Shown here: one piece after another, positions 1 to 10,491 of the stretch
Layout: every line of letters starts with the position of its first letter
Position numbering within the stretch: position 1 is the first letter of the stretch
IMG/VR virus record: IMGVR_UViG_2690316028_000010
Length of the DNA stretch: 10,491 nucleotides
Source of the DNA: a virus
Taxonomy: Duplodnaviria; Heunggongvirae; Uroviricota; Caudoviricetes
Reading direction: 5' to 3' (one strand)
Position numbers and translations under genes: made by a program
The notes under the pieces: model-generated
What the model was told of the DNA's origin: nothing
Seen by the model: only the letters and a program-made list of their open reading frames with translations
Database searches by the model: none

Positions 1-780
1 TTATGGCCTTGTATTTCCTTTTCTTAACTTCTTTTCGCTCTTTTTTACAAGCTTAATTAACCACTCTGGCTCATCCGACAGTTCGGAGTAATAGCAGTAT
101 TCTGGTATTGCTTTCCAAAATGTTGTTATTGCATCAGCAAATTCAACAAACTGTTCTTCTGTTACATGCAGATCATCATGAGTAGGATTGATATGTCTGC
201 CGCATATACCAGTAGGATGAGGGTAATATTCTGGATGAGTTGATGATAGGAGGCGGTGAGAATTTCCATCACCATGTTTGTACACATTTACGACTAATGC
301 GCACGCTTTGAGCTTATCGCCATAATCAGTTTCATCTATCTTGAGACCGATCCACTCGAGCAGTTTCAACAGTTGATCAAAATTTAAATCCCAAACCATT
401 GGTGTAATGATCTCTTTATCACACCAATGAGACAATTCTCTGATCGTTTTTTCTCGTAACTTTTTATCGAACTGGTGATACATACCCGCAGTTACTGCCA
501 AAAGAACAGTTTCTTGCATTTCAATAAGTGACCAGACGTAGTTTACACCCTCCTCATATGCTTGCTCATAGGCTGCCATTGGGTCGTCAAAATCAGGATT
601 GAAATGCTCAGCGGTATACTCCAGAAACTGTTTCTCTCGCTCCTCCGCCTCTTGGGTCAGATCCCCAAACTGAGACAAAAGTCTCCGTCTTGCTTCCGAA
701 ACATAAAATTCGTGAGGTTCAAGAAAATAGGGCCGATCTACTTTAGCAAGCCAAAATGTCACGAAGTTATCTGATGACAT
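1..780 (-). CDS. hypothetical protein, 259 aa (AT-rich accessory gene, family not recognised)
   Basis: Complete ORF on the complement with ATG at 780-778 and TAA at 3-1. An AAGGA Shine-Dalgarno-like motif (complement of 787-791) lies 6 nt upstream. The composition looks like a real soluble protein, and the antisense ORF 562-774 looks like a shadow. No domain recognised by eye. Confidence 0.75.
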   Translation of the reverse strand: MSSDNFVTFWLAKVDRPYFLEPHEFYVSEARRRLLSQFGDLTQEAEEREKQFLEYTAEHFNPDFDDPMAAYEQAYEEGVNYVWSLIEMQETVLLAVTAGMYHQFDKKLREKTIRELSHWCDKEIITPMVWDLNFDQLLKLLEWIGLKIDETDYGDKLKACALVVNVYKHGDGNSHRLLSSTHPEYYPHPTGICGRHINPTHDDLHVTEEQFVEFADAITTFWKAIPEYCYYSELSDEPEWLIKLVKKSEKKLRKGNTRP

Positions 781-798
781 AACTTATCCTTGATAATT

Positions 799-819
799 AT
801 TGTATGGATAGATTATCCA
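799..819 (-). promoter_or_regulatory. candidate -10 element plus adjacent 6-3-6 palindrome (possible operator) upstream of the 259-aa ORF
   Basis: On the complement strand, TACAAT (complement of 799-804) is a 5/6 match to TATAAT and would give a short leader to the ATG at 780. Immediately upstream is the palindrome TGGATA-GAT-TATCCA (805-819). TTATCC recurs at 784-789. I found no convincing -35. Confidence 0.3.
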
Positions 820-924
820 GAAATTTGCGAACTGAGTCGGTCATTTTTTTTTGTGTGCGCGTGATGTAATAAAGGTTCAGGAATATACTGTCAGTTTACT
901 GAAAAACTGGCAACAGAGGCGGTT

Positions 925-1152
925 ATGAGCGAGAGTTACGAGTTCTCAGCAGGTTGTTTTTTGAAGCTATCAATATCTTCAGGGTATTTCACTATCAAAA
1001 TTCAGGGAGATCTCCCCGCTCGTGCAGCTAGTGCCATCTTGGCAGATGATGTCGAGCAGGTTTTATCTCAACTAGACAAATGTTTTCAGCTGAGTAATAG
1101 GCAACGAGAAGGGATCGTTAAGTATCTTATGTCGAAGGGGATGCAGCCTTGA
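925..1152 (+). CDS. hypothetical small protein, 75 aa
   Basis: ATG at 925 is preceded by AGAGG (915-919) with a 5-nt spacer. The TGA at 1150-1152 overlaps the ATG of the next ORF (TGATG), implying translational coupling. No family recognised. Confidence 0.6.
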   Translation: MSESYEFSAGCFLKLSISSGYFTIKIQGDLPARAASAILADDVEQVLSQLDKCFQLSNRQREGIVKYLMSKGMQP

Positions 1153-1610
1153 TGACTTGGATCACCCAAACAGATAACTGGACAGGGATCGCGGCGTGGG
1201 CGGGTTTTGCTTTGTCCGTATTTCAATTACTAAAATCCAGAACATCGCTAAGGCTTTATCTCGGATGTGATCAGCACGAGGACAGGATATACGTTTCGAA
1301 CATAAGCGCACACGATGTAACGTTGAGTGCAGCCGGTGTGGTAACAGCCAGTGGACGCCTTAGAATGTTATCCGACGAATATTCGGACGAGAACATGATC
1401 ACACCGATGCTGCCAAAAAGATTGAAAGCACGAGACGAAATGGTCTTGAACGTGCCATTCATAAATAAGGCTCATCACAACAAAGTGCATCATCGTGGCG
1501 GGGTTTATATCAAAACATCTGACGGCAAGATGTTCAGTGATGTTTGTTGGATCAAACGCCAATGGTGGTGGTTACTGTCTGTAATACTACGAGACACAAA
1601 GCGATACTAA
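1152..1610 (+). CDS. hypothetical membrane-anchored protein, 152 aa
   Basis: I prefer the ATG at 1152 to the TTG at 1149 used in the ORF track. AAGGGGA (1135-1141) lies about 10 nt upstream. There is an N-terminal hydrophobic helix (WTGIAAWAGFALSVFQLL) and a Trp-rich hydrophobic C-terminus (RQWWWLLSVIL). The antisense ORFs 1271-1462 and 1368-1562 look like shadows. Confidence 0.65.
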   Translation: MTWITQTDNWTGIAAWAGFALSVFQLLKSRTSLRLYLGCDQHEDRIYVSNISAHDVTLSAAGVVTASGRLRMLSDEYSDENMITPMLPKRLKARDEMVLNVPFINKAHHNKVHHRGGVYIKTSDGKMFSDVCWIKRQWWWLLSVILRDTKRY

Positions 1611-1690
1611 GTTGATTGATAGTCCGAGGTGATGTTCTGCCCAGCGTAGTTGCTGGGTGATACACCTTCAATGATTCTTGTTAGTGTGTA

Positions 1691-1699
1691 GGGGGGGGG
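1691..1699 (+). repeat. G9 homopolymer directly upstream of ATG 1701
   Basis: Nine consecutive G (1691-1699), then C1700, then ATG at 1701. It is the longest G/C homopolymer I saw in the window. Confidence 0.95.
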
Positions 1700-1700
1700 C

Positions 1701-1919
1701 ATGTTGGATTTTAAAGCTGAGTTTGTTGGCGGCAGCCATAGCGGCGAGGTTATATCACCGATGTCCGAGGTAGAACTTAATAAACTAGGGTATAGAGTCC
1801 ATTTACGTGGTGCCCCCTCTGGCGATGAAATGCCTGTACACGTTGTTGTACCTATTGAATGGTCAGCGGATGAAGCACACAGAGCCATAATGCAGCGCTG
1901 GGGTAAACGCAGACGGTAG
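1701..1919 (+). CDS. hypothetical small protein, 72 aa
   Basis: ATG-initiated ORF with balanced composition. The G-run immediately upstream could serve as an SD-like element. The competing antisense ORF 1607-1930 is Ser/Pro/Thr-rich and looks non-coding. No family recognised. Confidence 0.45.
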   Translation: MLDFKAEFVGGSHSGEVISPMSEVELNKLGYRVHLRGAPSGDEMPVHVVVPIEWSADEAHRAIMQRWGKRRR

Positions 1920-2301
1920 ATGTCGCGCATTTCTCTTAAACTGGCTGCTGTGTTTGGTGCTAATTATCCATGCAAAGTGGCCTAAGCTACGTGGAAGAAT
2001 GATCAGTTTCGCATTATTTGGTTCAAGGAGGGCTCCCCCACAGCCTCACTCTCTGAATGCAAAACAGCCCCACAATCCCACTGTTAAAAGTCCCAGCTTG
2101 AAAATTGCACGCTTATGGTTGCCCCTCCCTCAACTCTATAGCTCGCCCGCGCCCCCGTGTGCATGTGCGTGCCCGCGCGTCAGGGGTCGCTGAGAAACCC
2201 TAAGATTTTGCTCATCCGAGACAAGCATTACCTGCACCTGTAAAACGCGAAATTACCTCTCAAACACCACACATAAACCCACTTTGCATTGAGATCTGAC
2301 A

Positions 2302-2649
2302 ATGACCTTACTGACACCTGAAAACGTGGCAGCGGCTAGGGCTGCCCGTAGCGCGAGGATTGAACACTGGAAAGCCAACGCCAGCCAGCTTAAGCAGGAC
2401 TTTGCTGACGAAGCGCACTGGCGGCGGCTCGCCTCACGCTTCGGCGTGCGTATGCCCTCGGCGTATGTTCCCGGCTCCGAGCTGCGATTGCTGCGCCGGG
2501 CGGCCAAACGCGCGGGCATCTCTGGTGCTGATATGCGCGATGCTTTTGGTGGGGGCGTTGCGCACCTGCACGAGCTTAATCCCCATTGGCCTGCCTTCGC
2601 GCTTATCGGCCTGATTCTTGAGATCGCGGCTGAAAAAGCTGCTGCCTGA
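2302..2649 (+). CDS. hypothetical Ala/Arg-rich protein, 115 aa, upstream of the capsid gene
   Basis: ATG-initiated ORF on the same strand as, and 68 nt upstream of, the capsid gene. It is helical-looking with a hydrophobic C-terminal segment (WPAFALIGLILEIAA). The SD is weak. Other ORFs overlap it in this GC-rich stretch (2360-2614 +, 2434-2679 -), so the frame choice is not certain. Confidence 0.55.
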   Translation: MTLLTPENVAAARAARSARIEHWKANASQLKQDFADEAHWRRLASRFGVRMPSAYVPGSELRLLRRAAKRAGISGADMRDAFGGGVAHLHELNPHWPAFALIGLILEIAAEKAAA

Positions 2650-2717
2650 TTCATCCCATTCTCTTTTCCCCTTTTCCATAAATCGCGCTGGCTAACGCTG
2701 GCGCGGGAGCTATTTCT

Positions 2718-3713
2718 ATGACTGACAATGTTTATACCCCTGACCAATTCCGCCCGCACTGGGGCGGTGTAGATGCTGACAACGACATTCACATTGAAGC
2801 GTATGACCGGGACGTTCAGACCCGCCTTGAGGCAAAGAGCGTGTTTCTCGCCGAGGGGCTGAGCACATACAAGCCGCTGAAAAACAGTAATCAGTATCGT
2901 GTAGACCGCCTGAGCGGAGATCTGGAGGTGAAGGGCAGAACCGCAGGGCAATCGCTGGAGCCTACCGCCGTTAAGTCGGACAAGCTGATTATCTCTGTGG
3001 ATACGCTGAGCTATATCCGCATCCCGATTGACTATCAAGACGACTGGACAGCGCCCACCTTTCGCGCAGAGCTGAGCCGCAACATGGGGACAGCCCATGC
3101 AAAGTTCTACGACGAAGCGCACACTATCCAGCTAATCAAAGCGACTGACTTTGTACCGCCGCCTACGTTGCAACCAACGTTTAACCCGCTGACGGATAAT
3201 GTTGTCTCGCTCGACCTGACAACGGGGAGCGAAGAGGATGCGGCTAACGAACTGGTTCACGCTATTAAAGCTGCTGTTAATCGATTCCTAACTGAAAAAG
3301 ATATTCCGGTGGCGGAGCTGTGCCTTCTCATCGACCCAGCTTGGTTCAGCATCCTGATGGAACATAAGAAGTTGATGAACGTCCGTTACAGCCGGGATAG
3401 TGGCAATGATTACGCATGGCGTCGCGTTGGCTATGTCGCTGGGGTGCGAGTTATTGAGCTGAACAGTTACCCGCAGGAAGCCATTACCGCGCATGAACTG
3501 GGCGCTGATTATGATGTGACCGCAGGGGAAGCGCTGACACGGGCGACGCTGTTCCGGCCTGCGTCTGTACTTGTGACAGTCGAAGCGCAGAGCGTTATCA
3601 ATCGCCAGTGGGATGATGAACGCGAAATGACAATGGTGATGGACTCATATCGCCTGTTCAATGTTGGGCTGCGCCGCCCTGACTGCGTTATAAATTTCCG
3701 ACAAGCTGCATAA
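2718..3713 (+). CDS. major capsid protein, HK97 fold, T7 gp10-like family, 331 aa
   Basis: GGGAG (2705-2709) lies 8 nt upstream of the ATG. Its length is close to T7 gp10A (345 aa as I recall). By-eye collinear similarity to gp10A as I recall it: DKLIISVDTLSYIRIPIDYQDDW..RAELSRNMGTAHAKFYDEA vs EKVITIDGLLTADVLIYDIEDAM..RSEYTSQLGESLAMAADGA; LCLLIDPAWFSIL vs VFYCDPDSYSAIL; GVRVIELNSYP vs GFEVVEVPHL; C-terminal GLRRPDCVINF vs GGLRPEAAGAVVF. Confidence 0.88.
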   Translation: MTDNVYTPDQFRPHWGGVDADNDIHIEAYDRDVQTRLEAKSVFLAEGLSTYKPLKNSNQYRVDRLSGDLEVKGRTAGQSLEPTAVKSDKLIISVDTLSYIRIPIDYQDDWTAPTFRAELSRNMGTAHAKFYDEAHTIQLIKATDFVPPPTLQPTFNPLTDNVVSLDLTTGSEEDAANELVHAIKAAVNRFLTEKDIPVAELCLLIDPAWFSILMEHKKLMNVRYSRDSGNDYAWRRVGYVAGVRVIELNSYPQEAITAHELGADYDVTAGEALTRATLFRPASVLVTVEAQSVINRQWDDEREMTMVMDSYRLFNVGLRRPDCVINFRQAA

Positions 3714-3729
3714 CAAAAGGGGCCGAGCC

Positions 3730-4161
3730 ATGAATATTGATGCTTATGCCCCGGAGCTGTTGCGCTCTTTGTTTCGGTACGATGCGAAGACTGGCCGCCT
3801 GTTCCATGCAGTAGACCGGATCGGAGCCAACAAGCGGATTTACGCTAAAGCCGGGGAACTGGCCGACACGGTAACGGACAGCGCCGGATATAGGCGCGTA
3901 TCTGTCCGCATCAATGGCAAATCTCATGCGCTATACGCCCACCGTGTCGCCTTCATCATTGCTAATGACGGTATCCCTGCCGGGATGCAAATCGACCATA
4001 TCAACGCGGTACGCGATGACAACCGCCTTATCAATCTCCGCACGGTTACGCCACAAGAGAACCAGCACAATTACCGCAAAGCCAAGGGTTATAGCCACCA
4101 TGCCTGCTCTGGCAGATGGGAGGCTTACATTCGCGTTGGTGATCCACCGCGCGATAAATAA
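3730..4161 (+). CDS. HNH homing endonuclease (HNH_3 type) with a truncated AP2-like C-terminal stub, 143 aa
   Basis: AAGGGG (3717-3722) lies 7 nt upstream of the ATG. It has the classic motif AHRVAFIIANDGIPAGMQIDHINAVRDDNRLINLRTVTPQENQHN (His-Asn-Asn metal finger). The C-terminus GYSHHACSGRWEAYIRVG resembles the first strands of the AP2 DNA-binding domain found in HNH-AP2 phage endonucleases, but the ORF stops 8 residues later. Confidence 0.9.
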   Translation: MNIDAYAPELLRSLFRYDAKTGRLFHAVDRIGANKRIYAKAGELADTVTDSAGYRRVSVRINGKSHALYAHRVAFIIANDGIPAGMQIDHINAVRDDNRLINLRTVTPQENQHNYRKAKGYSHHACSGRWEAYIRVGDPPRDK

Positions 4162-4200
4162 GCCGCAATCCGTGAGATAAATGGACACGGTGCGGCTTTT
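4162..4200. terminator. bidirectional intrinsic terminator between convergent HNH and tape-measure genes
   Basis: The left arm GCCGCAATCCGTG (4162-4174) pairs with the right arm CACGGTGCGGC (4186-4196), with a small internal mismatch. It is followed by TTTT (4197-4200) on the plus strand and preceded by A-rich sequence, which provides the U-run for the minus-strand transcript. It sits exactly between the two stop codons (4161 and 4228). Confidence 0.7.
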
Positions 4201-4227
4201 CAGATACTGCAAAGGAATTACAGATTA

Positions 4228-6711
4228 TCAGTCGTAAGCAACCCGGCGCTTACGGGCAAGGATAGCTTCCAGTGCTCTTTCAATCTCAGGAATGGACAGC
4301 TTAAGCGCATTGGCCACATCCGGTGCTGGTGACTTGTTCTTGCCATCAATATAGATATTGTTAATGACGTTAATCCCGCCGCCTGCGCCTGCTGGTGAAT
4401 GAGAGTCCCGGCCTCTGGGTAAGGTAAGGTCGCCGCGCATATAGCGCTCTAATACGGGGGGTACTTTCGGCACATCCGGCACCATCATATCAGCCAGCCG
4501 CGAGGAGGCTTTCAGCGCCAGTGATGCAGACTGACCAATGCCAATCGCCGCCCCTTCTGCGATATTAGACCCGAAGCCCATAAATACACGGCTTGGCGAG
4601 TGAATCCCCAGCTTTTCCTTGAACCAGCCGCCGACACTGTCACCCATCTCAGTGACGGTATTCTTGAGAGACTCCCACTTGTTTTTGATACCGTTCACCA
4701 GTCCATCAATCAAGTGACCACCAAACTCAGTAAACTGGCCGGGAAGGTCGATGTTAAACCACTTCATGACCCCCGCAAACGCCTTGTAGAACAGCCCCAG
4801 CGGCGACCAGTTCAGGATTAGCTTACTGACACCAAGAACCCCGCCGTTAAAGGCTGTTTTCACTTCCTCCCACCGCTGCGAGAACCATCGGCTTATCGCG
4901 CCCCAGTTGCGGTAAATCAGGTACGCGCCCCCGGCGATGATGGTTATCGCAATGCCTATGGGGTTCATTAACAGCGCCCTGCCAAACCAGAGGAAAGCCT
5001 TTGCCACCACCATTACGCCTCTGAACAGTCCACCCGCCAGCGCTTTACCCAGCATTCCGGCTCCCTTCGCCACGGTACTGAATCCGGTAGCCAGCCAGCG
5101 CAGCTTTCCGCCGTCGCTCAGGGCGGTTTTGAGCAACAGCCAGTTAGTGCGCAGCAGTACGGCGTTTTTCCACAACCCGGCGAACGGTGATACCAGCAGA
5201 TTCAGGCCGAGTTTCAGCCCGACAGTGGCGATTTTCAGCCCCAGCAGTACGCCCACGGTTTTTGCCACACCCTGAACAATGCCGGGATGTTGCGCTATCC
5301 ATTGCCCGGTGGAATGAATCAGCGGAATCAGTTGCTGCGTCATTGACACGAACGAGGGAGACAGTTGACTGCCAAGGGTAATGGACAGTTCGCGGGTGCT
5401 GACCATCAGTGCTTTGGTCGCCTCCAGCGGCGATTTCAGTCGCTCCGTGTAGGAGGAGGCCAGCAGGTCTTTATCCGCCGCCTTAAGTGCGCCAGCCCTG
5501 ATTTCGCGGTATTTGTCCATGTTGGCGAGCATCGGACGGACAAACGCCATGACCTGCATATCGGCGAACATCTCACCCAGACCGAAATTCTTTGCCAGTT
5601 CCTGTAACGCAAGGTCGCGGGAGTTATCGTCCTTGATTTTCATTGCTTTCTTGAAGCCTGCCAGTGCTTCCGGGCTTTTGGCCTCCAGATACCTGCCCAT
5701 GACGCTTATCATGCCCTCAATGGGCGAGACGCCAGCAGATTTATAAGCCATGAGTGACCCCTGAAGGTCAATCCCGATATCGGCAAACTGTTTCTGCGTG
5801 TCGCGGGCAAAAATCTTGGTGAGGAAGTTACGGAAGTTGTTACCAGCCTCGTCAGATGACCCGGCACCAATTCGGGCAATCTGTAAACTCGCTCCGATTT
5901 CCGCCATCGCTTCTTTACCTTCGGCAATACCGCGCATCATCGGGGCAAGAGATGGCATCCATTTCACCTGGTCAGGTATTTCAAAAGACCCTTGGTCGCC
6001 TGCAAAGGCCATGATGTTCTGTACTTTGGCAAACTCTTTAGCGCTGCCATCCATCGAGTTTTTCCAGACGGCGGCAACCTTCGCCCATTCCGTCCCTGTG
6101 GTGCGTGTGGCAGTAGCGGCGCGGGCTATATTGGGCATGAAGCTGCCAATTTCGGACACACTGTCGATATTGTCACTGATAAGCGAGCCTACGGCGTCCT
6201 GTAAGTCGCTCTGGTACTGGTTGTACTTGAGCGACCATCCCCGGATTTGCTGCCCCAGACTGGCGCGGGTTTTATCGTCATATTTCGCCGTGATCGACAT
6301 ATCAATCATCTTGTCGTCGAACGTAGCCGACTGCTGAATCGCCGGGGAAACGAGGCTGTAAGCGGCTTTGGCCTGCGCCCACGTCTCAATTCCCTGTCCA
6401 TAAAGCGCCATCCGGTTAGCTCTCAGGGCATCGGTTGTGGCAGACGCTGCCGACAGGCGGGACTGCTGGCGGTTTAGTTGCTCCAGCGTTCTGCCTACCC
6501 GTTGCAGGTCATTGTTCAGGCGTGAGGCCACGCCTGAACCTACCTGACCGTAACGCTGCATGGCGCGTGACAGGCTGCTTTGTTGCTCGGTCAGGCGGCG
6601 TGACGTGTCGCCGAGAGAATCAAGCGCCCGCCGTGTGCCGCTGACGGCGGAACGGAAGCTGCTCCCGACAATACCGCCAATCATCACACCAACAGAAAAA
6701 TTATTGCTCAT
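4228..6711 (-). CDS. phage tail tape measure protein, 827 aa
   Basis: GGAG (complement of 6718-6721) lies 6 nt upstream of the ATG. The N-terminal region is coiled-coil. A central region resembles the TP901-family tape-measure core (..ASLQIARIGAGSSDEAGNNFRNFLTKI..). A block of Gly/Ala/Leu-rich hydrophobic helices follows (GVLLGLKIATVGLKLGLNLL, IGIAITIIAGGAYLIY), then the conserved GIHSPSRVF motif. All plus-strand ORFs inside it are low-complexity shadows. Confidence 0.93.
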   Translation of the reverse strand: MSNNFSVGVMIGGIVGSSFRSAVSGTRRALDSLGDTSRRLTEQQSSLSRAMQRYGQVGSGVASRLNNDLQRVGRTLEQLNRQQSRLSAASATTDALRANRMALYGQGIETWAQAKAAYSLVSPAIQQSATFDDKMIDMSITAKYDDKTRASLGQQIRGWSLKYNQYQSDLQDAVGSLISDNIDSVSEIGSFMPNIARAATATRTTGTEWAKVAAVWKNSMDGSAKEFAKVQNIMAFAGDQGSFEIPDQVKWMPSLAPMMRGIAEGKEAMAEIGASLQIARIGAGSSDEAGNNFRNFLTKIFARDTQKQFADIGIDLQGSLMAYKSAGVSPIEGMISVMGRYLEAKSPEALAGFKKAMKIKDDNSRDLALQELAKNFGLGEMFADMQVMAFVRPMLANMDKYREIRAGALKAADKDLLASSYTERLKSPLEATKALMVSTRELSITLGSQLSPSFVSMTQQLIPLIHSTGQWIAQHPGIVQGVAKTVGVLLGLKIATVGLKLGLNLLVSPFAGLWKNAVLLRTNWLLLKTALSDGGKLRWLATGFSTVAKGAGMLGKALAGGLFRGVMVVAKAFLWFGRALLMNPIGIAITIIAGGAYLIYRNWGAISRWFSQRWEEVKTAFNGGVLGVSKLILNWSPLGLFYKAFAGVMKWFNIDLPGQFTEFGGHLIDGLVNGIKNKWESLKNTVTEMGDSVGGWFKEKLGIHSPSRVFMGFGSNIAEGAAIGIGQSASLALKASSRLADMMVPDVPKVPPVLERYMRGDLTLPRGRDSHSPAGAGGGINVINNIYIDGKNKSPAPDVANALKLSIPEIERALEAILARKRRVAYD

Positions 6712-6742
6712 GGTTCACTCCGGTTGAGTGGTTCGGTGGGCG

Positions 6743-7336
6743 TCATTCAGTCAGGGACAGGCCGCTGATTCCGGTAATCCCGGCAATTTCTTCGCTGACG
6801 GCTGCCAGTTCACTTTCAAGCCCGGTGCGTTCGCTGACCAGTGCCGCCACGGTCTTACGGCGCTCTGCCAGTGAGGGAAGTTTGTCATTACCCCACGTCA
6901 CGCTCTTATCCTTCTTAAGCGCTTCGGTCAGTCGGGTGGCGACCACATCCGGGAAGAAAAAGCAGAGCTTGCGCATTACCGCCATCCCGGTATCAGCCGG
7001 GGGGACGTTTCCTCCCAGCCCCACCAGACGGAACAGACCGGAAATATCGCCGTTCTCATTTTCCAGATTGCCCCAGCGTTCGGCGTTCCCTTCACCGCCG
7101 GAACCGTTGCAAAGAGCACGCTTGAATGACTGATATTCTTCCTGCCCGAATCGCTCAATATATTCAGGAATAAAGGAACAGTAATCATTAAGTGATAACG
7201 GCATATCCTGTAATGCGGTTATTTCGCCATTAATATCACCAATGCGACGAGAGAGCTTTTCTTTCTGCTCATTCAGGGAGGTAAGGTTATTTTTAACGGC
7301 GTTCAGTGCTTCAATGAGGGAAATAACAGGTTTCAT
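6743..7336 (-). CDS. hypothetical coiled-coil protein, 197 aa (between the gpO-like gene and the tape measure gene)
   Basis: GGAG (complement of 7345-7348) lies 8 nt upstream of the ATG. The start is coupled to the upstream stop by TAAAATG. Heptad-like N- and C-terminal segments (LTSLNEQKEKLSRRIGDINGEITALQ; GLESELAAVSEEIAGI) flank a Gly-rich middle. No family recognised. Confidence 0.8.
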   Translation of the reverse strand: MKPVISLIEALNAVKNNLTSLNEQKEKLSRRIGDINGEITALQDMPLSLNDYCSFIPEYIERFGQEEYQSFKRALCNGSGGEGNAERWGNLENENGDISGLFRLVGLGGNVPPADTGMAVMRKLCFFFPDVVATRLTEALKKDKSVTWGNDKLPSLAERRKTVAALVSERTGLESELAAVSEEIAGITGISGLSLTE

Positions 7337-7337
7337 T

Positions 7338-7952
7338 TTAATAACTCCAGATAAAAGGTGTAGTGAGGGTGAGCGCTTCGGAATAGGAGACGTTGCAGGC
7401 TTCGCTTACATCCTTTATTAAAAGGTGCTGCGCTGCCCTCTGGCTGTCGGCTATGCCGTCGAGCTCTGAGAAATAAACGTGTGATTCATTGTGACCAAAA
7501 CAAACCGGGTAAGCGCTTTCCATAAACTCCACCTGCTCAAGCCCCTTTACGGCTGGCGGCTGTGCGCCGAGAAAACCAATATGGCGAAGATACCAGGCAC
7601 CAGTTCCGGCCGGGTTACGCGCTTCTCCCGGCCTGTAGAAAGCGGCAGACACTTTTTTATATAGACCTGACTGAACCATATCCAGCAACCTGTTATCAGG
7701 CTTAACCAGCGCGAAAAGTCTGCCGTTTTTACTTATCAGTCCGGTGGTTTCACCATAGGCGGGACTGTTACTGGCCGGATGCCCCAGGCACAGCGGCGCA
7801 CCATAACCCGCGCGATGATAGCCGTTATAGGCTGCTGCCATGTTGTCGATATCCTCGTCGGAAAAGCTGATTTCCTGCCCCGCCATCGCGGTATGTGTTC
7901 CCGCCCGGAATATCTCAATAGTTTTCCAGTTACCAATATTGATATCTGTCAT
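7338..7952 (-). CDS. P2 gpO / Mu gpI-like prohead protease (capsid scaffolding protein N-terminal domain) homolog, 204 aa
   Basis: By-eye collinear similarity to P2 gpO as I recall it: GQEISFSDEDIDNMAAAY vs GRVISAQDIQEMAETF; YGAPLCLGH vs YGCRINLEH; LFALVKPDNRLLDMVQSGLYKKVSAAF vs LFAKITPTDDLIAMNKAAQKVYTSMEI; PPAVKGLEQVEF vs DPASLGTEYLEF. The start is coupled to the upstream gene by TAAAATG. Confidence 0.82.
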   Translation of the reverse strand: MTDINIGNWKTIEIFRAGTHTAMAGQEISFSDEDIDNMAAAYNGYHRAGYGAPLCLGHPASNSPAYGETTGLISKNGRLFALVKPDNRLLDMVQSGLYKKVSAAFYRPGEARNPAGTGAWYLRHIGFLGAQPPAVKGLEQVEFMESAYPVCFGHNESHVYFSELDGIADSQRAAQHLLIKDVSEACNVSYSEALTLTTPFIWSY

Positions 7953-7953
7953 T

Positions 7954-8481
7954 TTATATTTGTCCCTGTTTCATATCGCGGCACTCTTTGTTTTTCTTAC
8001 GCTCGGCGGCAATAATCTGATAAATCCACTGAATAGAATTGCCATATTTCCTGGCTAATTCCCGATGAGTCATCCCTTGTTTGTAATCGGAAAATATCCT
8101 GGCATTTCTGTCGAAAGAGTTTCTGGCTGCGCCATTAGGTATATAGAAATTGTTACCTTTAAAGACCCTTCTAAGGTGTTCTGTAATTTCCGGGGAAATG
8201 ATTTCGGCCTGAGCCGAAAAGCAATGTATTGTAAGCAAAGCCTGCGCTATCACACCTGTAAGCTCATGCAGAAAAGATGTTGCTTTAGGGGCGTCTTCAC
8301 ATTCTATTGGCATGTAATTCTGGCAACCACCAAGATTATCAGATATATGCAAAACAATTTTATTTGCTGCACTACTTGCCTGAAGTTGTGAATAGCCCGC
8401 ATCAGTCAGAAAATCTTCAATCGCATCCCCCATTTCCCCCAGAGTGTCAGATGTTGCGTACAATCCCTCTCTTGTAATCAT
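7954..8481 (-). CDS. Mor/C-family transcriptional activator (Mu Mor-like), 175 aa
   Basis: I prefer the ATG at 8481 (GAGGT, complement of 8488-8492, 6 nt upstream) to the GTG at 8487 in the track. The C-terminal half matches Mu Mor as I recall it: GNNFYIPNGAARNSFDRNARIFSDYKQGMTHRELARKYGNSIQWIYQIIAAERK vs GGQVYIPRGQALDSLIRDLRIWNDFNGRNVSELTTRYGVTFNTVYKAIRRMRR (HTH region). Confidence 0.85.
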   Translation of the reverse strand: MITREGLYATSDTLGEMGDAIEDFLTDAGYSQLQASSAANKIVLHISDNLGGCQNYMPIECEDAPKATSFLHELTGVIAQALLTIHCFSAQAEIISPEITEHLRRVFKGNNFYIPNGAARNSFDRNARIFSDYKQGMTHRELARKYGNSIQWIYQIIAAERKKNKECRDMKQGQI

Positions 8482-8681
8482 AATCACACCTCGGTAATGA
8501 TAAAGATGTGCGCTAAAAAGGCTTTATAAAGCTTTATGAGGCGTCTTTCTGGTGACAAATCAGCACATACACCATTAACGCTTTAAAATGGCTTACAGGC
8601 TTTTTTAGCGCGGGTTACTAATGTGGATTAAGAATATGGTTTTGGGGCGGGGATGTTTTTTAATGTACTTTAGATATGAAG

Positions 8682-8703
8682 AAGCCCCTCAGAGGAGGGG
8701 CTT
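8682..8703 (-). terminator. GC-rich hairpin downstream of the 96-aa gene (candidate terminator)
   Basis: AAGCCCCTC (8682-8690), loop AGAG, GAGGGGCTT (8695-8703): a perfect 9-bp stem beginning 17 nt after the stop at 8720. The trailing sequence on the minus strand (CTTCATATCT) is only a partial U-run, so intrinsic termination is uncertain. Confidence 0.5.
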
Positions 8704-8719
8704 GCGGGATTACGCCAGA

Positions 8720-9010
8720 TTATTGAGGTCGTCTGTCTTTCCTCAATCCATCAAGTAGCGCCATGGCATCAGTAACCAGTATGCCAGCAGCATCCGTAAC
8801 CATCGAAACATCAGAGGATGCACATGATTTATCCATACCTAATGTTGACGCAAAATCAAGTAGCTTACGAACTGCGTCAAGTCGATAGGTGGCAGAGTCG
8901 TAAATTAACTCCTGATTAGCATCAGTCTTTAAAAACATAATATCATCAGAGGCACCTTGCGAAAATGACGGCATCGCACGGAAAGTATTTTGAGTTTCAG
9001 CCTGTTTCAT
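8720..9010 (-). CDS. hypothetical protein, 96 aa
   Basis: Strong GGAGGA (complement of 9018-9023) lies 7 nt upstream of the ATG. There is a 4-nt ATGA overlap with the stop of the upstream 245-aa gene. No family confidently recognised. Confidence 0.75.
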   Translation of the reverse strand: MKQAETQNTFRAMPSFSQGASDDIMFLKTDANQELIYDSATYRLDAVRKLLDFASTLGMDKSCASSDVSMVTDAAGILVTDAMALLDGLRKDRRPQ

Positions 9011-9744
9011 TGTGCAGTCCTCCGGCTAATAGCGAATTTATTATAAACTTCATAACTGGCAGCATTCAGTCCGGGGTTGTATTTATCAGCCAGAGCACAG
9101 GCAATCATATGTTCAATAAATTTTGTTATTGCGTTAAGTTCAGTTTCGTTTGAATAACGCAATGCCACTTTGAGTAACTCGCGGCAATATTGTTTTTTAT
9201 TCCCTTCGATTTGGCCTGATTTTTTTATTCCTGCCTTTTTATCTGATTCATCCTCAACAGGCAAAGATGGGATATCCTCTTTATTGGTTAGCGTTCTTTC
9301 GCAAATAATATCTTCACCAGATTGAATTACGCGCTGCAACTCTCTGGCGCTCATACGAAGAATATCATCAAGCGTGTGGTCGTTATATGCCCCACCACTG
9401 GCAAGGAGATCCAGTGTCACTTCATCCAGCCGGGCAAGCAGGTTTAACTTCGTTTTGCCGATACTTGTTTTGGCAATTGCGGCTCGGGGGGTATTGGTTA
9501 CGCCAAATATCAGAGCAACCCGCATAGCATTATGGGCTTCACGTTTATTAATTCCCCCCACTGAAAGCGCCTTTGCAAATTCCTCATTTGTTTTTGTTGC
9601 TTCCTTAAGTGCCAGCATCTCTTTACCACGATGCACTAAAGTTTCAGTCGGGGTTGGCAAAAGGAGTACAGCATCTAAAATTTTTTCCCGAAGTACATCA
9701 ACTTGGCTTGCGATGCATGAACGGTTAGACTTGTTGATACCCAT
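9007..9744 (-). CDS. hypothetical protein, 245 aa, possible HTH-type DNA-binding or regulatory protein
   Basis: I prefer the ATG at 9744 (GAGGA, complement of 9753-9757, 8 nt upstream) to the track start at 9765. The segment FAKALSVGGINKREAHNAMRVALIF..IGKTKLNLLARL resembles HTH-like segments of phage/plasmid DNA-binding proteins, but this is only a pattern impression. It is the first gene of the leftward operon at the divergent control region. Confidence 0.8.
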   Translation of the reverse strand: MGINKSNRSCIASQVDVLREKILDAVLLLPTPTETLVHRGKEMLALKEATKTNEEFAKALSVGGINKREAHNAMRVALIFGVTNTPRAAIAKTSIGKTKLNLLARLDEVTLDLLASGGAYNDHTLDDILRMSARELQRVIQSGEDIICERTLTNKEDIPSLPVEDESDKKAGIKKSGQIEGNKKQYCRELLKVALRYSNETELNAITKFIEHMIACALADKYNPGLNAASYEVYNKFAISRRTAQ

Positions 9745-9774
9745 GATTGTTATCCTCAATAACAATGGTGGTCA

Positions 9775-9809
9775 GGCAGGATGTGATACTGAACCTATCA
9801 TGTCCTGCC
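9775..9809. promoter_or_regulatory. imperfect inverted repeat in the leader of the leftward operon
   Basis: GGCAGGATGTGATA (9775-9788) and TATCATGTCCTGCC (9796-9809) are complementary at 12 of 14 positions and separated by 7 nt. This could be an operator or a 5'-UTR RNA hairpin. Confidence 0.4.
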
Positions 9810-9831
9810 GCTTGCGGTTTTACATCTACTT

Positions 9832-9859
9832 AATGTAATGTACGTACCATTGATTTCAA
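9832..9859 (-). promoter_or_regulatory. candidate sigma70 promoter for the leftward 245-aa/96-aa operon
   Basis: On the complement strand: TTGAAA (complement of 9854-9859), a 16-nt spacer, then TACATT (complement of 9832-9837). The spacer contains the left arm of the 12-bp inverted repeat. Confidence 0.4.
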
Positions 9860-9877
9860 TCTAAACAATGGTACGTA
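9841..9877. promoter_or_regulatory. perfect 12-bp inverted repeat (operator candidate) in the divergent control region
   Basis: TACGTACCATTG (9841-9852) and CAATGGTACGTA (9866-9877) are exact reverse complements separated by 13 nt. The right arm abuts the RHH start codon and the left arm lies in the leftward promoter spacer. A third copy of the half-site, AACAATGGT, occurs at 9761-9769 (compare 9864-9872). Confidence 0.6.
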
Positions 9878-9879
9878 TC

Positions 9880-10071
9880 ATGTCAAGAGTAAAAGATAAC
9901 ACGCCTAAAAATTCCGCAGGGCGTTCCCCGACCTTCCAAATACGTATTACACCTGAACTTAGGGAACAGCTTGATAAAGAAGCTCTTAAAGATGGTGTAA
10001 GTTTGGCCAATTGGCTCAAAGGCATTGCACGAGATGAACTACGCAGGAGAGGTATTTCTCCAAAAGGGTAG
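9880..10071 (+). CDS. ribbon-helix-helix (Arc/CopG-like) DNA-binding protein, 63 aa
   Basis: FQIRITPELREQLDKEALKDGVSLANWLKGIARDEL has the canonical beta-strand/helix/helix RHH pattern. The start could be ATG 9880 or in-frame ATG 9868, and neither has a clear SD. It is divergent from the leftward operon, the typical position of a repressor. Confidence 0.82.
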   Translation: MSRVKDNTPKNSAGRSPTFQIRITPELREQLDKEALKDGVSLANWLKGIARDELRRRGISPKG

Positions 10072-10086
10072 GGCTAATCAGGTACA

Positions 10087-10110
10087 AAAAGCGAAAACGT
10101 TTTCGCTTTT
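10087..10110 (+). terminator. perfect 24-bp palindrome after the RHH gene (possible intrinsic terminator; first unit of the palindrome array)
   Basis: AAAAGCGAAAAC|GTTTTCGCTTTT begins 16 nt after the RHH stop. As RNA it would form a GCGAAA/UUUCGC stem extended by A-U pairs and ending in UUUU. Confidence 0.45.
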
Positions 10111-10476
10111 ATGGCTAAGAGAGCGGATGCACTCATTAAAGCGGACAGCGCTGTCCGCCTCCAATCAGCAAAAAAACAAGATGGTTCCTCCAAAACGCTC
10201 AACGTTGAGCGTTACGTTATTCCGACAAAAGCGCAGGCGCTTGCGCTTTTGAAAGGGATCAACACGGCTTTCAAACCGGACAACGTTGACCGCTTTAAGG
10301 AATCACTGTCGGCTGAGCAAAAACGGCAAGCGCTTGCCGTTTTAGATTCGCGGGGCGGTAAACGTTTACCGTTCTGTGTCAATTATGTTCAAAAGCGAAA
10401 GCGCTTTCGCATTTTCTCACCTAAAGCGGCAAACCTCCTCTGTCTTAGCTGGAAAAACGACATCGCTGTCGTTTTT
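10087..10476. repeat. array of nine dyad-symmetric (palindromic) elements with A-run/T-run flanks
   Basis: P1 10087-10110 (24 bp, perfect). P2 10141-10158 (18 bp, perfect). P3 10194-10213 (20 bp, perfect). P4 10227-10250 (11/12 pairs). P5 10273-10296 (10/12 pairs). P6 10320-10343 (24 bp, perfect). P7 10356-10371 (16 bp, perfect). P8 10395-10410 (16 bp, perfect, plus flanks). P9 10453-10476 (10-bp arms, 4-nt centre). All read directly from the sequence. Confidence 0.9.
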
Positions 10477-10491
10477 AATCCGAGGTTCTAA
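10111..10491 (+). CDS. questionable ORF, 126 aa, overlapping the palindrome array
   Basis: ATG-to-TAA ORF with no SD; the 12 nt upstream are the right arm of palindrome P1. A second plus-strand frame (10025-10252) is open over the same DNA, consistent with stop-poor composition rather than coding. Eight of the nine palindromes lie inside it, in inconsistent codon phase. Confidence 0.3.
   Translation: MAKRADALIKADSAVRLQSAKKQDGSSKTLNVERYVIPTKAQALALLKGINTAFKPDNVDRFKESLSAEQKRQALAVLDSRGGKRLPFCVNYVQKRKRFRIFSPKAANLLCLSWKNDIAVVFNPRF

Follow-up and report, generated by a model that had tools for sequence, protein, structure and literature searches.

Heterotypic palindrome array on a satellite-like element as a putative set of binding sites for the gp10 proteins of BcepMu-like transposable phages

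At one end of a 10,491-nt stretch of Caudoviricetes DNA (IMG/VR record IMGVR_UViG_2690316028_000010; "the window" below means this whole stretch) lies a dense array of short palindromes, whose units are variants of a palindrome that BcepMu-like transposable phages carry inside their gp10 gene (DUF3102). We consider it probable that the array is a multi-specificity set of putative double-stranded DNA (dsDNA) sites for gp10 dimers of helper phages, with one cognate palindrome for each gp10 variant. The array is carried by a discrete element of ~7.8 kb with termini like those of such phages, and related arrays occur on copies of this element in several bacterial genera.

Results and Discussion

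Array Units and the Palindrome of the Phage gp10 Gene

A first-pass annotation of the window had listed nine palindromes, and re-reading the sequence found all nine where it had placed them (Table 1). It had also argued that their density exceeds chance, which holds: if arms of ≥8 nt with ≤1 mismatch are required, 9 palindromes fall within the last 420 bp, where 2,000 dinucleotide shuffles average 0.26 and reach at most 3, and another 3 are scattered over the 10 kb before it. The array is cut off by the window end; a locus in Escherichia coli AW1.7, 98.6% identical to the window, has a fuller version with 14 units over ~615 bp.

The phage counterpart of these units is a palindrome within a coding sequence. 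A generic scan of viral contigs for AAAGCG...CGCTTT returned mostly single terminator-like hairpins and also led to locus L190 (L numbers denote loci throughout), a real transposable phage with an array 3′ of its repressor gene and one more palindrome inside the gene just upstream of the transposase gene. This palindrome-bearing gene belongs to the BcepMu gp10 family (DUF3102, phrog_1748). The gp10 genes of KP12 (a BcepMu-like, transposable Klebsiella phage), PhiKM, Phi06_2974B, BcepMu, phiE255, and L190 each contain one perfect palindrome of 24–30 bp, 345–390 nt from the start, with arms that differ among these phages, and 78 of 80 KP12 relatives in IMG/VR have the palindrome at the same gp10-gene position, as 21 distinct 24-mers. 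We define here the Bcepmuvirus gp10-gene palindrome as a 24–28-bp dyad of the pattern CAAA(A/T)-variable 5–6 nt-(A/C)A(A/G)C·G(C/T)T(G/T)-variable-(A/T)TTTG; array units belong to this family by identity or near-identity of sequence to a phage variant. The helper family has transposase A and B genes, replicates by transposition, and is annotated with a transposase of the Tn552/IS1604 type. A pac-site function for the phage palindrome was rejected, since it lies ~7 kb from the nearest genome end.

The match between units and phage sites exceeds what composition predicts. Over the units of all arrays, the mean best match to phage sites is 21.9/24, compared with 20.5 ± 0.28 in a control that preserves position-specific composition, and 14 of 42 units match a phage site at ≥23/24 (control mean 3.3, maximum 9). 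The 25 nt on each side of the units match the phages at the random level, and the idea that units were captured along with their surrounding gp10 sequence was rejected on this ground. The AW1.7 array includes a unit at ≥23/24 for the site of 39 of 76 sampled phage loci, and the site of the prophage co-resident in AW1.7 matches one unit of that array at 23/24 (compared by eye). The AW1.7 version of P9 is a perfect palindrome with an ACGT center and matches the L265 site at 23/24. Even an irregularity is shared: the GGACA/TGACC asymmetry of P5 is kept in all arrays and occurs in the phage sites of L278 and L312.

Table 1. Features of the window (· marks the center of a dyad; phage sites are those within gp10 genes)
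Feature	Position	Strand	Description
P1	10087..10110		AAAAGCGAAAAC·GTTTTCGCTTTT; perfect 24-bp palindrome; 24/24 to the site of phage loci L269/L272
P2	10139..10160		core GCGGACAGC·GCTGTCCGC; nearest phage site phiE255, 20/24
P3	10194..10213		AACGCTCAAC·GTTGAGCGTT; 22/24 to the L295-type phage site AAAACGCTCAACGTTGAGCGTTTT
P4	10227..10250		AAAAGCGCAGGC·GCTTGCGCTTTT; 24/24 to the L311/L324 phage site, G/T imperfection included
P5	10273..10296		AAACCGGACAAC·GTTGACCGCTTT; 10/12 positions complementary; best phage match 20/24
P6	10320..10343		AAAACGGCAAGC·GCTTGCCGTTTT; 24/24 to the phage site of L263, L285, L304, L305, and L333
P7	10356..10371		CGGTAAAC·GTTTACCG; perfect 16-mer; best phage match 15/24
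P8	10391..10414		AAAAGCGAAAGC·GCTTTCGCATTT; 23/24 to the L322 phage site
P9	10453..10476		AAAAACGACA-TCGC-TGTCGTTTTT; 22/24 to the L308 phage site
Left terminus of element	4140..4200		TGATCCACCGCGCGATAAATAAGCCGCAATCCGTGAGATAAATGG; homology between independent insertions starts here
Tape-measure gene	4228..6711	-	Pfam and TIGR01760 matches; 73% nucleotide identity to KP12 tape-measure gene
204-aa homologue of the N-terminal part of a Mu-type head protease/scaffold protein	7338..7952	-	PHROG 976
Mor-family activator gene	7954..8487	-	Pfam Mor, E = 1.7e-25
gp10-like gene of element (phrog_1748, DUF3102-related)	9007..9744	-	PHROG E = 1.7e-20; 245-aa product
Inverted repeat, candidate operator	9841..9877		TACGTACCATTGATT / AAACAATGGTACGTA; divergent promoter region of the RHH gene and gp10-like operon
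Ribbon-helix-helix (RHH; HicB/YlcI-like) gene	9868..10071	+	upstream of array, divergent from the minus-strand operon

Helix–Site Pairing, Symmetry, and Fixed Sequence

To every variant of the phage site corresponds one version of a helix encoded ~30 codons upstream in the same gene (e.g., AERTARLVMQAA, SKRTAQVMMQAS, and HVRAAQRMMKAS). Helix SKRTAQV is found with site GCGCA, AERTARL with ACGGCAAGC, PYRTSVR with ATGTGCC, HVRAAQR with CGACA, APQVARR with CGCTCA, and the pair PKSTAHR/PKTTAYR with TCCCAGC; like helices are paired with like sites. The helix follows the pattern QLGL-x-x-R-T-A-x-x-M-M-Q-A, which is typical of a helix-turn-helix (HTH) and by which we classify it as HTH-like. Which variant a phage has depends neither on overall relatedness (r = 0.09) nor on any other segment between −3 and +4 kb, transposase N-terminus included; a specificity partner elsewhere, in the transposase N-terminus or the repressor region, was accordingly rejected.

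The dyad symmetry of the site is strict. Across 26 phage variants, 95.2% of position pairs are complementary, and changes on both sides of a pair account for 63 cells, compared with 17.4 ± 3.1 in shuffles, a value reached by 0 of 500. The true pairing scores 0.583 and slid pairings score ≤0.086. The pair flanking the central CG is complementary in 26/26 variants, which would leave a hairpin loop of 2 nt. Furthermore, phages of the same variant differ at 0 of 24 nt while 15–20 of 34 neighboring codons show synonymous differences that leave the helix unchanged (L263 vs. L333, L257 vs. L320, and L265 vs. L330 are examples of such frozen 24-mers). Identical 24-mers amid so much synonymous change argue that the gp10-gene site sequence itself is under purifying selection, beyond its ability to pair. 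The arm covariation on which the first-pass annotation had built its case for selected structure is thus real, and it is better explained by two half-sites tracking one protein specificity than by base pairing.

These results weigh on a rival reading, in which the units act as RNA or single-stranded DNA (ssDNA) hairpins, that is, as a weak bidirectional terminator cascade insulating the regulator gene, as structured or sponge RNA, or as cruciforms. The units do have the shape of an A-tract, a GC-rich stem, and a T-tract; the array stands directly 3′ of a regulator gene both in the element and in L190; certain units have non-palindromic centers (TCGC, TCTC) with intact arms; and the minus strand folds at slightly lower energy in 5/6 arrays. 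Independent arm mismatches are strand-biased as well, with 14 A·C, 4 G·T, and 6 others on the plus strand in a manual tally of the listed variants. This excess of A·C over G·T is the opposite of the earlier claim that plus-strand-only G:U pairs weakly favor RNA. A scan of the AW1.7 array for terminators and promoters gave few hits, however: among its 14 units, only 2 pass a terminator scan that requires a GC-rich stem-loop followed by a T-rich tract with ≥5 T in 8 (12593–12611 on the plus strand and 12903–12872 on the minus strand of that locus), most units carrying no more than TTTT, paired with the 5′ A-tract. Covariance models of Rfam 15 give no match in the array, their only matches lying elsewhere at E ≥ 0.05, far below the gathering score. 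The symmetry of the phage sites extends to the pair beside the central CG, the 24 nt stay fixed within a variant with neither compensatory nor wobble drift although synonymous change nearby is saturated, the phage site sits within a translated open reading frame (ORF), and the units reuse specific phage sequences beyond compositional expectation. RNA hairpins or terminators, one proposal of the first-pass annotation, and ssDNA hairpins for replication or packaging, another, are both unsupported by these data, and we regard hairpin action in any of these forms as unlikely.

Extent and Conservation of the Array

Arrays of 9–14 units are kept in at least six diverged lineages belonging to several genera, and among six lineages palindrome columns are conserved at 85.4%, compared with 74.0% for spacer columns. 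The array region occurs at 36 places in 35 of 5,426 E. coli genomes, one or two per genome. BLAST searches of phages and plasmids with this region gave a single partial plasmid match, and when metagenomes were scanned for exact occurrences of the P2 core, most matches were due to chance, with four real arrays among the results; a parallel scan of viral contigs added one further real array.

The alternation of AACGTT and AGCGCT centers noted in the first pass holds in the window; it is not conserved, since homologous units in relatives swap centers. P8 has GCGC, ACGT, or ACGC and P9 has TCGC, ACGT, GCGC, or TCTC, depending on the relative, and the alternation is, as far as these comparisons go, a symmetric two-state position that flips between relatives. 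The 126-aa ORF that overlaps the array (10111–10491, plus strand) is not a gene: it is interrupted by a TCG→TAG stop in AW1.7, its frame is open in no relative compared (Citrobacter, Erwinia, Intestinirhabdus, and metagenome copies), and it has no Pfam or PHROG match.

Nor does the array fall into familiar repeat classes, in agreement with the first-pass annotation. It is not a CRISPR, its direct-repeat families being only 63–83% alike and identical with the palindromes themselves, with no cas genes; it is not REP/BIME, since the units differ from one another and occupy one or two places per E. coli genome; and it is not a lambda-type iteron origin, since the sites are heterotypic, there is no initiator or helicase-loader gene, and the helpers replicate by transposition.

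The array could alternatively be non-functional debris, in which fragments of gp10 genes were gathered by recombination and kept perfect by template-switch "quasipalindrome correction," a known mutational mechanism. Array indels (seen in comparisons of the window, L040, L041, L001, L043, L045, and L047) start and stop in shared palindrome cores, e.g., CCCAGCGCTGGGA, and produce hybrid units; certain units have decayed in some lineages, as P3 has in those of L043 and L047; and the upstream flank of P4, RYVIPTKAQALALL, resembles gp10 coding sequence (KYLSPKLEPKAQALALL). Against debris stand the persistence of the arrays over diverged lineages and genera, the conservation of palindromes above spacers, the lack of gp10 homology in flanks other than that P4 stretch, and the enriched match to phage variants. 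We consider debris the least probable of the explanations weighed here.

The Element That Carries the Array

The element spans window positions 4140–10491 and continues past the window end; in L040 it occupies 6339–14145. Its boundaries come from copies in E. coli ynbC, in E. coli near serW, on a Citrobacter IncFIC plasmid, and in an Enterobacter phage-plasmid, and further insertions occur in Erwinia and Intestinirhabdus. It begins with TGATCCACCGCGCGATAAA and ends with ATTTATCTCATGTCTAATCA, the ends of independent insertions reading TGAT...ATCA, and the target duplications that border it are 6 bp long (AGTGAA, ATTGCA, and CCAGAG). E. coli AW1.7 also holds a KP12-like prophage in adiA, with a 6-bp duplication of its own (AGCTAC), and both termini of this prophage, the left one included, are homologous to those of the element. 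Scans with Pfam, PHROG, and further families found neither transposase nor integrase in the element. With helper-type termini and duplications, no transposase of its own, and multiple independent insertions, it belongs among the non-autonomous derivatives or satellites of transposable phages, and these features are most simply explained if it depends on the transposase of KP12/BcepMu-like phages, which would mobilize it.

The genes of the element are, in order, the tape-measure gene, two genes related to Mu-type head protease/scaffold proteins, the Mor-family activator, a 96-aa gene, the gp10-like gene, the RHH gene on the other strand, and the array; beyond the window, after the array, a Gp27-family gene closes the series. 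In full transposable prophages, the region corresponding to the 204-aa homologue is the N-terminus of a 382-aa protein encoded between portal/MuF-sized ORFs and a major-head-sized ORF. The element's gp10-like product is 32% identical to KP12 gp10 over 154 aa. The RHH gene is probably a regulator of the element, and the 9841–9877 inverted repeat (15 bp with a 7-nt gap and overlapping TACGTA motifs, unrelated in sequence to the array units) is likely to be the operator of that regulator.

In a sister form of the element (L042 14595–15758; also L044 and L046, reverse complement), the array and Gp27 gene are replaced by a 58-aa RHH gene and a full-length gp10-like gene of 316–321 aa that has no palindrome. 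Erwinia tracheiphila has one copy of each form. The presence of a full-length gp10-like gene at the locus of the array suggests that the two forms act on the same helper function.

The gene content of the element raises another alternative, that the units are sites for one of its own proteins (RHH, the Gp27-like HTH protein, or the 245-aa gp10-like product) in an operator, centromere, or packaging array. The array does lie between the RHH and Gp27-like genes, the P2 18-bp core, present in 12/12 arrays compared, could be a self site, and the element encodes a gp10 homologue. RHH as binder was nevertheless rejected, since 38 IMG/VR loci with RHH relatives lack an array and the sister form has an RHH gene and no array; the helper also ends in a Gp27-family gene, again without an array. 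A dozen arm sequences, each matching a different phage variant, are not explicable by a single protein, and family scans found no ParA/ParB gene or replication initiator in the element. Heterotypic units and the lack of a partition ATPase or ParB gene likewise set the array apart from partition centromeres of the sopC/parS class. In proposing dimer-binding sites, with lambda ori inside gene O as a precedent, the first-pass annotation was right about the kind of explanation, and the binder it named, the RHH protein or a downstream product, is unsupported; the units match the site of the helper gp10 gene instead. Binding by a protein of the element itself seems to us improbable.

Several observations on the element and its surroundings stand apart from the array. 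A truncated copy (L041 4685–9100) lies beside a tRNA-Ser gene between clpA and infA, with its tape-measure gene deleted and an IS5 at its right side; it is shared by E. coli SK1144 and 26 others, making 27 complete E. coli genomes, several of them labeled O25:H4. The Gp27-family gene near the right end of the element (L040 13663–14007) also comes last before the right end in KP12-like helpers (L250 34523–34852), and it is unlikely to serve the element in packaging, because KP12-like phages have a separate terminase small subunit. From ~70 to 550 bp past the end of the array (L040 12964–13460), a terminator-like hairpin and a promoter-like site lie between two 34-bp inverted repeats, which are separated by 218 bp and nearly identical wherever a copy has them; ~70 bp further downstream come a 27-codon hydrophobic ORF (MKGFLQIAVIALKAIVAFIELILACLP) and a strong hairpin. 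The whole resembles a type I toxin–antitoxin module, and the region has no Rfam match. Window positions 1–4139 are a different mobile region, with a phrog_19541 gene (1–780), a major head protein gene (2718–3713), and an HNH endonuclease gene (3730–4161) in whose 3′ end the first base of the element falls; this region resembles a capsid-forming island.

Proposed Function

We propose that gp10 binds the palindrome as a symmetric dimer, in which case a change of specificity would shift both arms together and intrastrand pairing would not be needed. In the array the arms would then covary as a result of both half-sites having to suit a single recognition helix, with units that represent different specificities. 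With its many variants, the element could capture the gp10 of whichever helper becomes active, and such capture would most likely mark element DNA as phage DNA for the step that gp10 serves. We favor recruitment of gp10 to element DNA for transposition-replication as that step, given that gp10 shares a transcript with transposase genes A and B; capture might alternatively sense helper induction or titrate gp10 away from the helper, as a purpose or a side effect. A bolder form of this proposal, whose chances we put a little short of even, sets a satellite of a kind not described before, mobilized by the helper transposase and equipped with a "key-ring" of a dozen heterotypic locks that would let it capture, or else titrate, gp10 from nearly every helper variant, against helpers that keep helix and palindrome as a diversifying "lock and key" module in one gene.

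An array is also present in one of the phages. That of L190 (5990–6470) has ~7 palindromes directly 3′ of the repressor gene, in variants unlike the phage's own gp10 site, which would fit a decoy or exclusion role at least there; it may act against competing phages.

A number of points weigh against binding of helper gp10 by the array. Any one helper has only one or two cognate units, which leaves the benefit of a single-copy decoy questionable. The helix–site association decays symmetrically within ~150 nt, and physical linkage could explain part of it. Searches for an HTH family in gp10 (PDB sequence and profile searches, Pfam at a weak threshold) found none, the single-sequence AF2 model of gp10 has a pLDDT of 41 and is unusable, so that its fold is not established, and the database homologues returned were all ≥97% identical and hence gave no deep alignment. 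The phage sites sampled include nothing close to P7 and no more than a distant match for P2, and the sequence space is small enough that the control matches are already high. The two gp10-like genes of the element's own forms contain no internal palindrome. Finally, the plus-strand excess of A·C mismatches is not accounted for by dimer binding.

If gp10 does bind these sites, DUF3102/gp10, a conserved early protein of BcepMu-like phages, would gain a proposed function and a cognate site, the two forming a specificity module split into many discrete types. There would also be a family of small elements that parasitize transposable phages by way of the helper transposase, in E. coli (several O25:H4 strains included), Citrobacter, Enterobacter, Erwinia, and others, and the array would represent a new design, with different sites each for a different helper variant, in effect a DNA-encoded library of helper specificities. 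More generally, covarying palindrome arms can be produced when symmetric dimers diversify in specificity, with no nucleic-acid structure involved, which calls for caution when such covariation is read as folding. Because AW1.7 holds both helper and element, the system can be tested directly there. Full-text literature searches found nothing on DUF3102 function, on the BcepMu palindrome, or on satellites of transposable phages.

Comparison with Known Systems

Like REP/BIME, the array is a cluster of imperfect palindromes outside genes; REP/BIME form one high-copy chromosomal consensus family, whereas no two array units are alike and a genome has them at one or two places. F sopC, parS clusters, plasmid iterons, and E. 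coli datA likewise group short protein sites together, on a chromosome or a mobile element, and some titrate their protein. In those systems one sequence serves one protein; here each unit differs and matches a different phage variant, and partition and initiator genes are absent.

The element resembles phage satellites (P4, SaPI/PICI, cfPICI, and PLE, which copy cis sites of the helper, e.g., cos or pac) in its small size, its lack of mobility or virion genes of its own, its helper-derived ends, its modified helper-like structural and regulatory genes, and, in AW1.7, a co-resident helper. It departs from them in that its mobility would rest on a helper transposase rather than an integrase, with helper dependence deduced from its termini and gene content.

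The proposed pairing of helix and site can be compared with the operator-enhancer (IAS) of Mu and D108, which is matched by the N-terminal domains of repressor and transposase. There, as here, a transposable phage has, close to its transposase gene, a cis site that varies and is matched to a variable DNA-binding domain; the gp10 site, by contrast, shows no association with the transposase N-terminus or anything else outside gp10, and the transposase is of the Tn552/IS1604 type.

The closest known parallel is the type-specific pairing of O and ori in lambdoid phages. Lambda-type ori iterons lie inside gene O, and the N-terminal domain of O pairs type-specifically with ori. The gp10 palindrome is similarly a phage dyad site embedded in the gene of its presumed binder, beside the segment for the DNA-binding part, and related phages differ jointly in the site and in this protein segment. 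The phages described here, however, have one site rather than four homotypic iterons, have no AT-rich unwinding region, and use transposition for their replication. The window's array, moreover, is heterotypic and located on a separate parasitic element, and it is this combination, a heterotypic array on a parasite, that is new relative to the lambdoid O–ori pairing.

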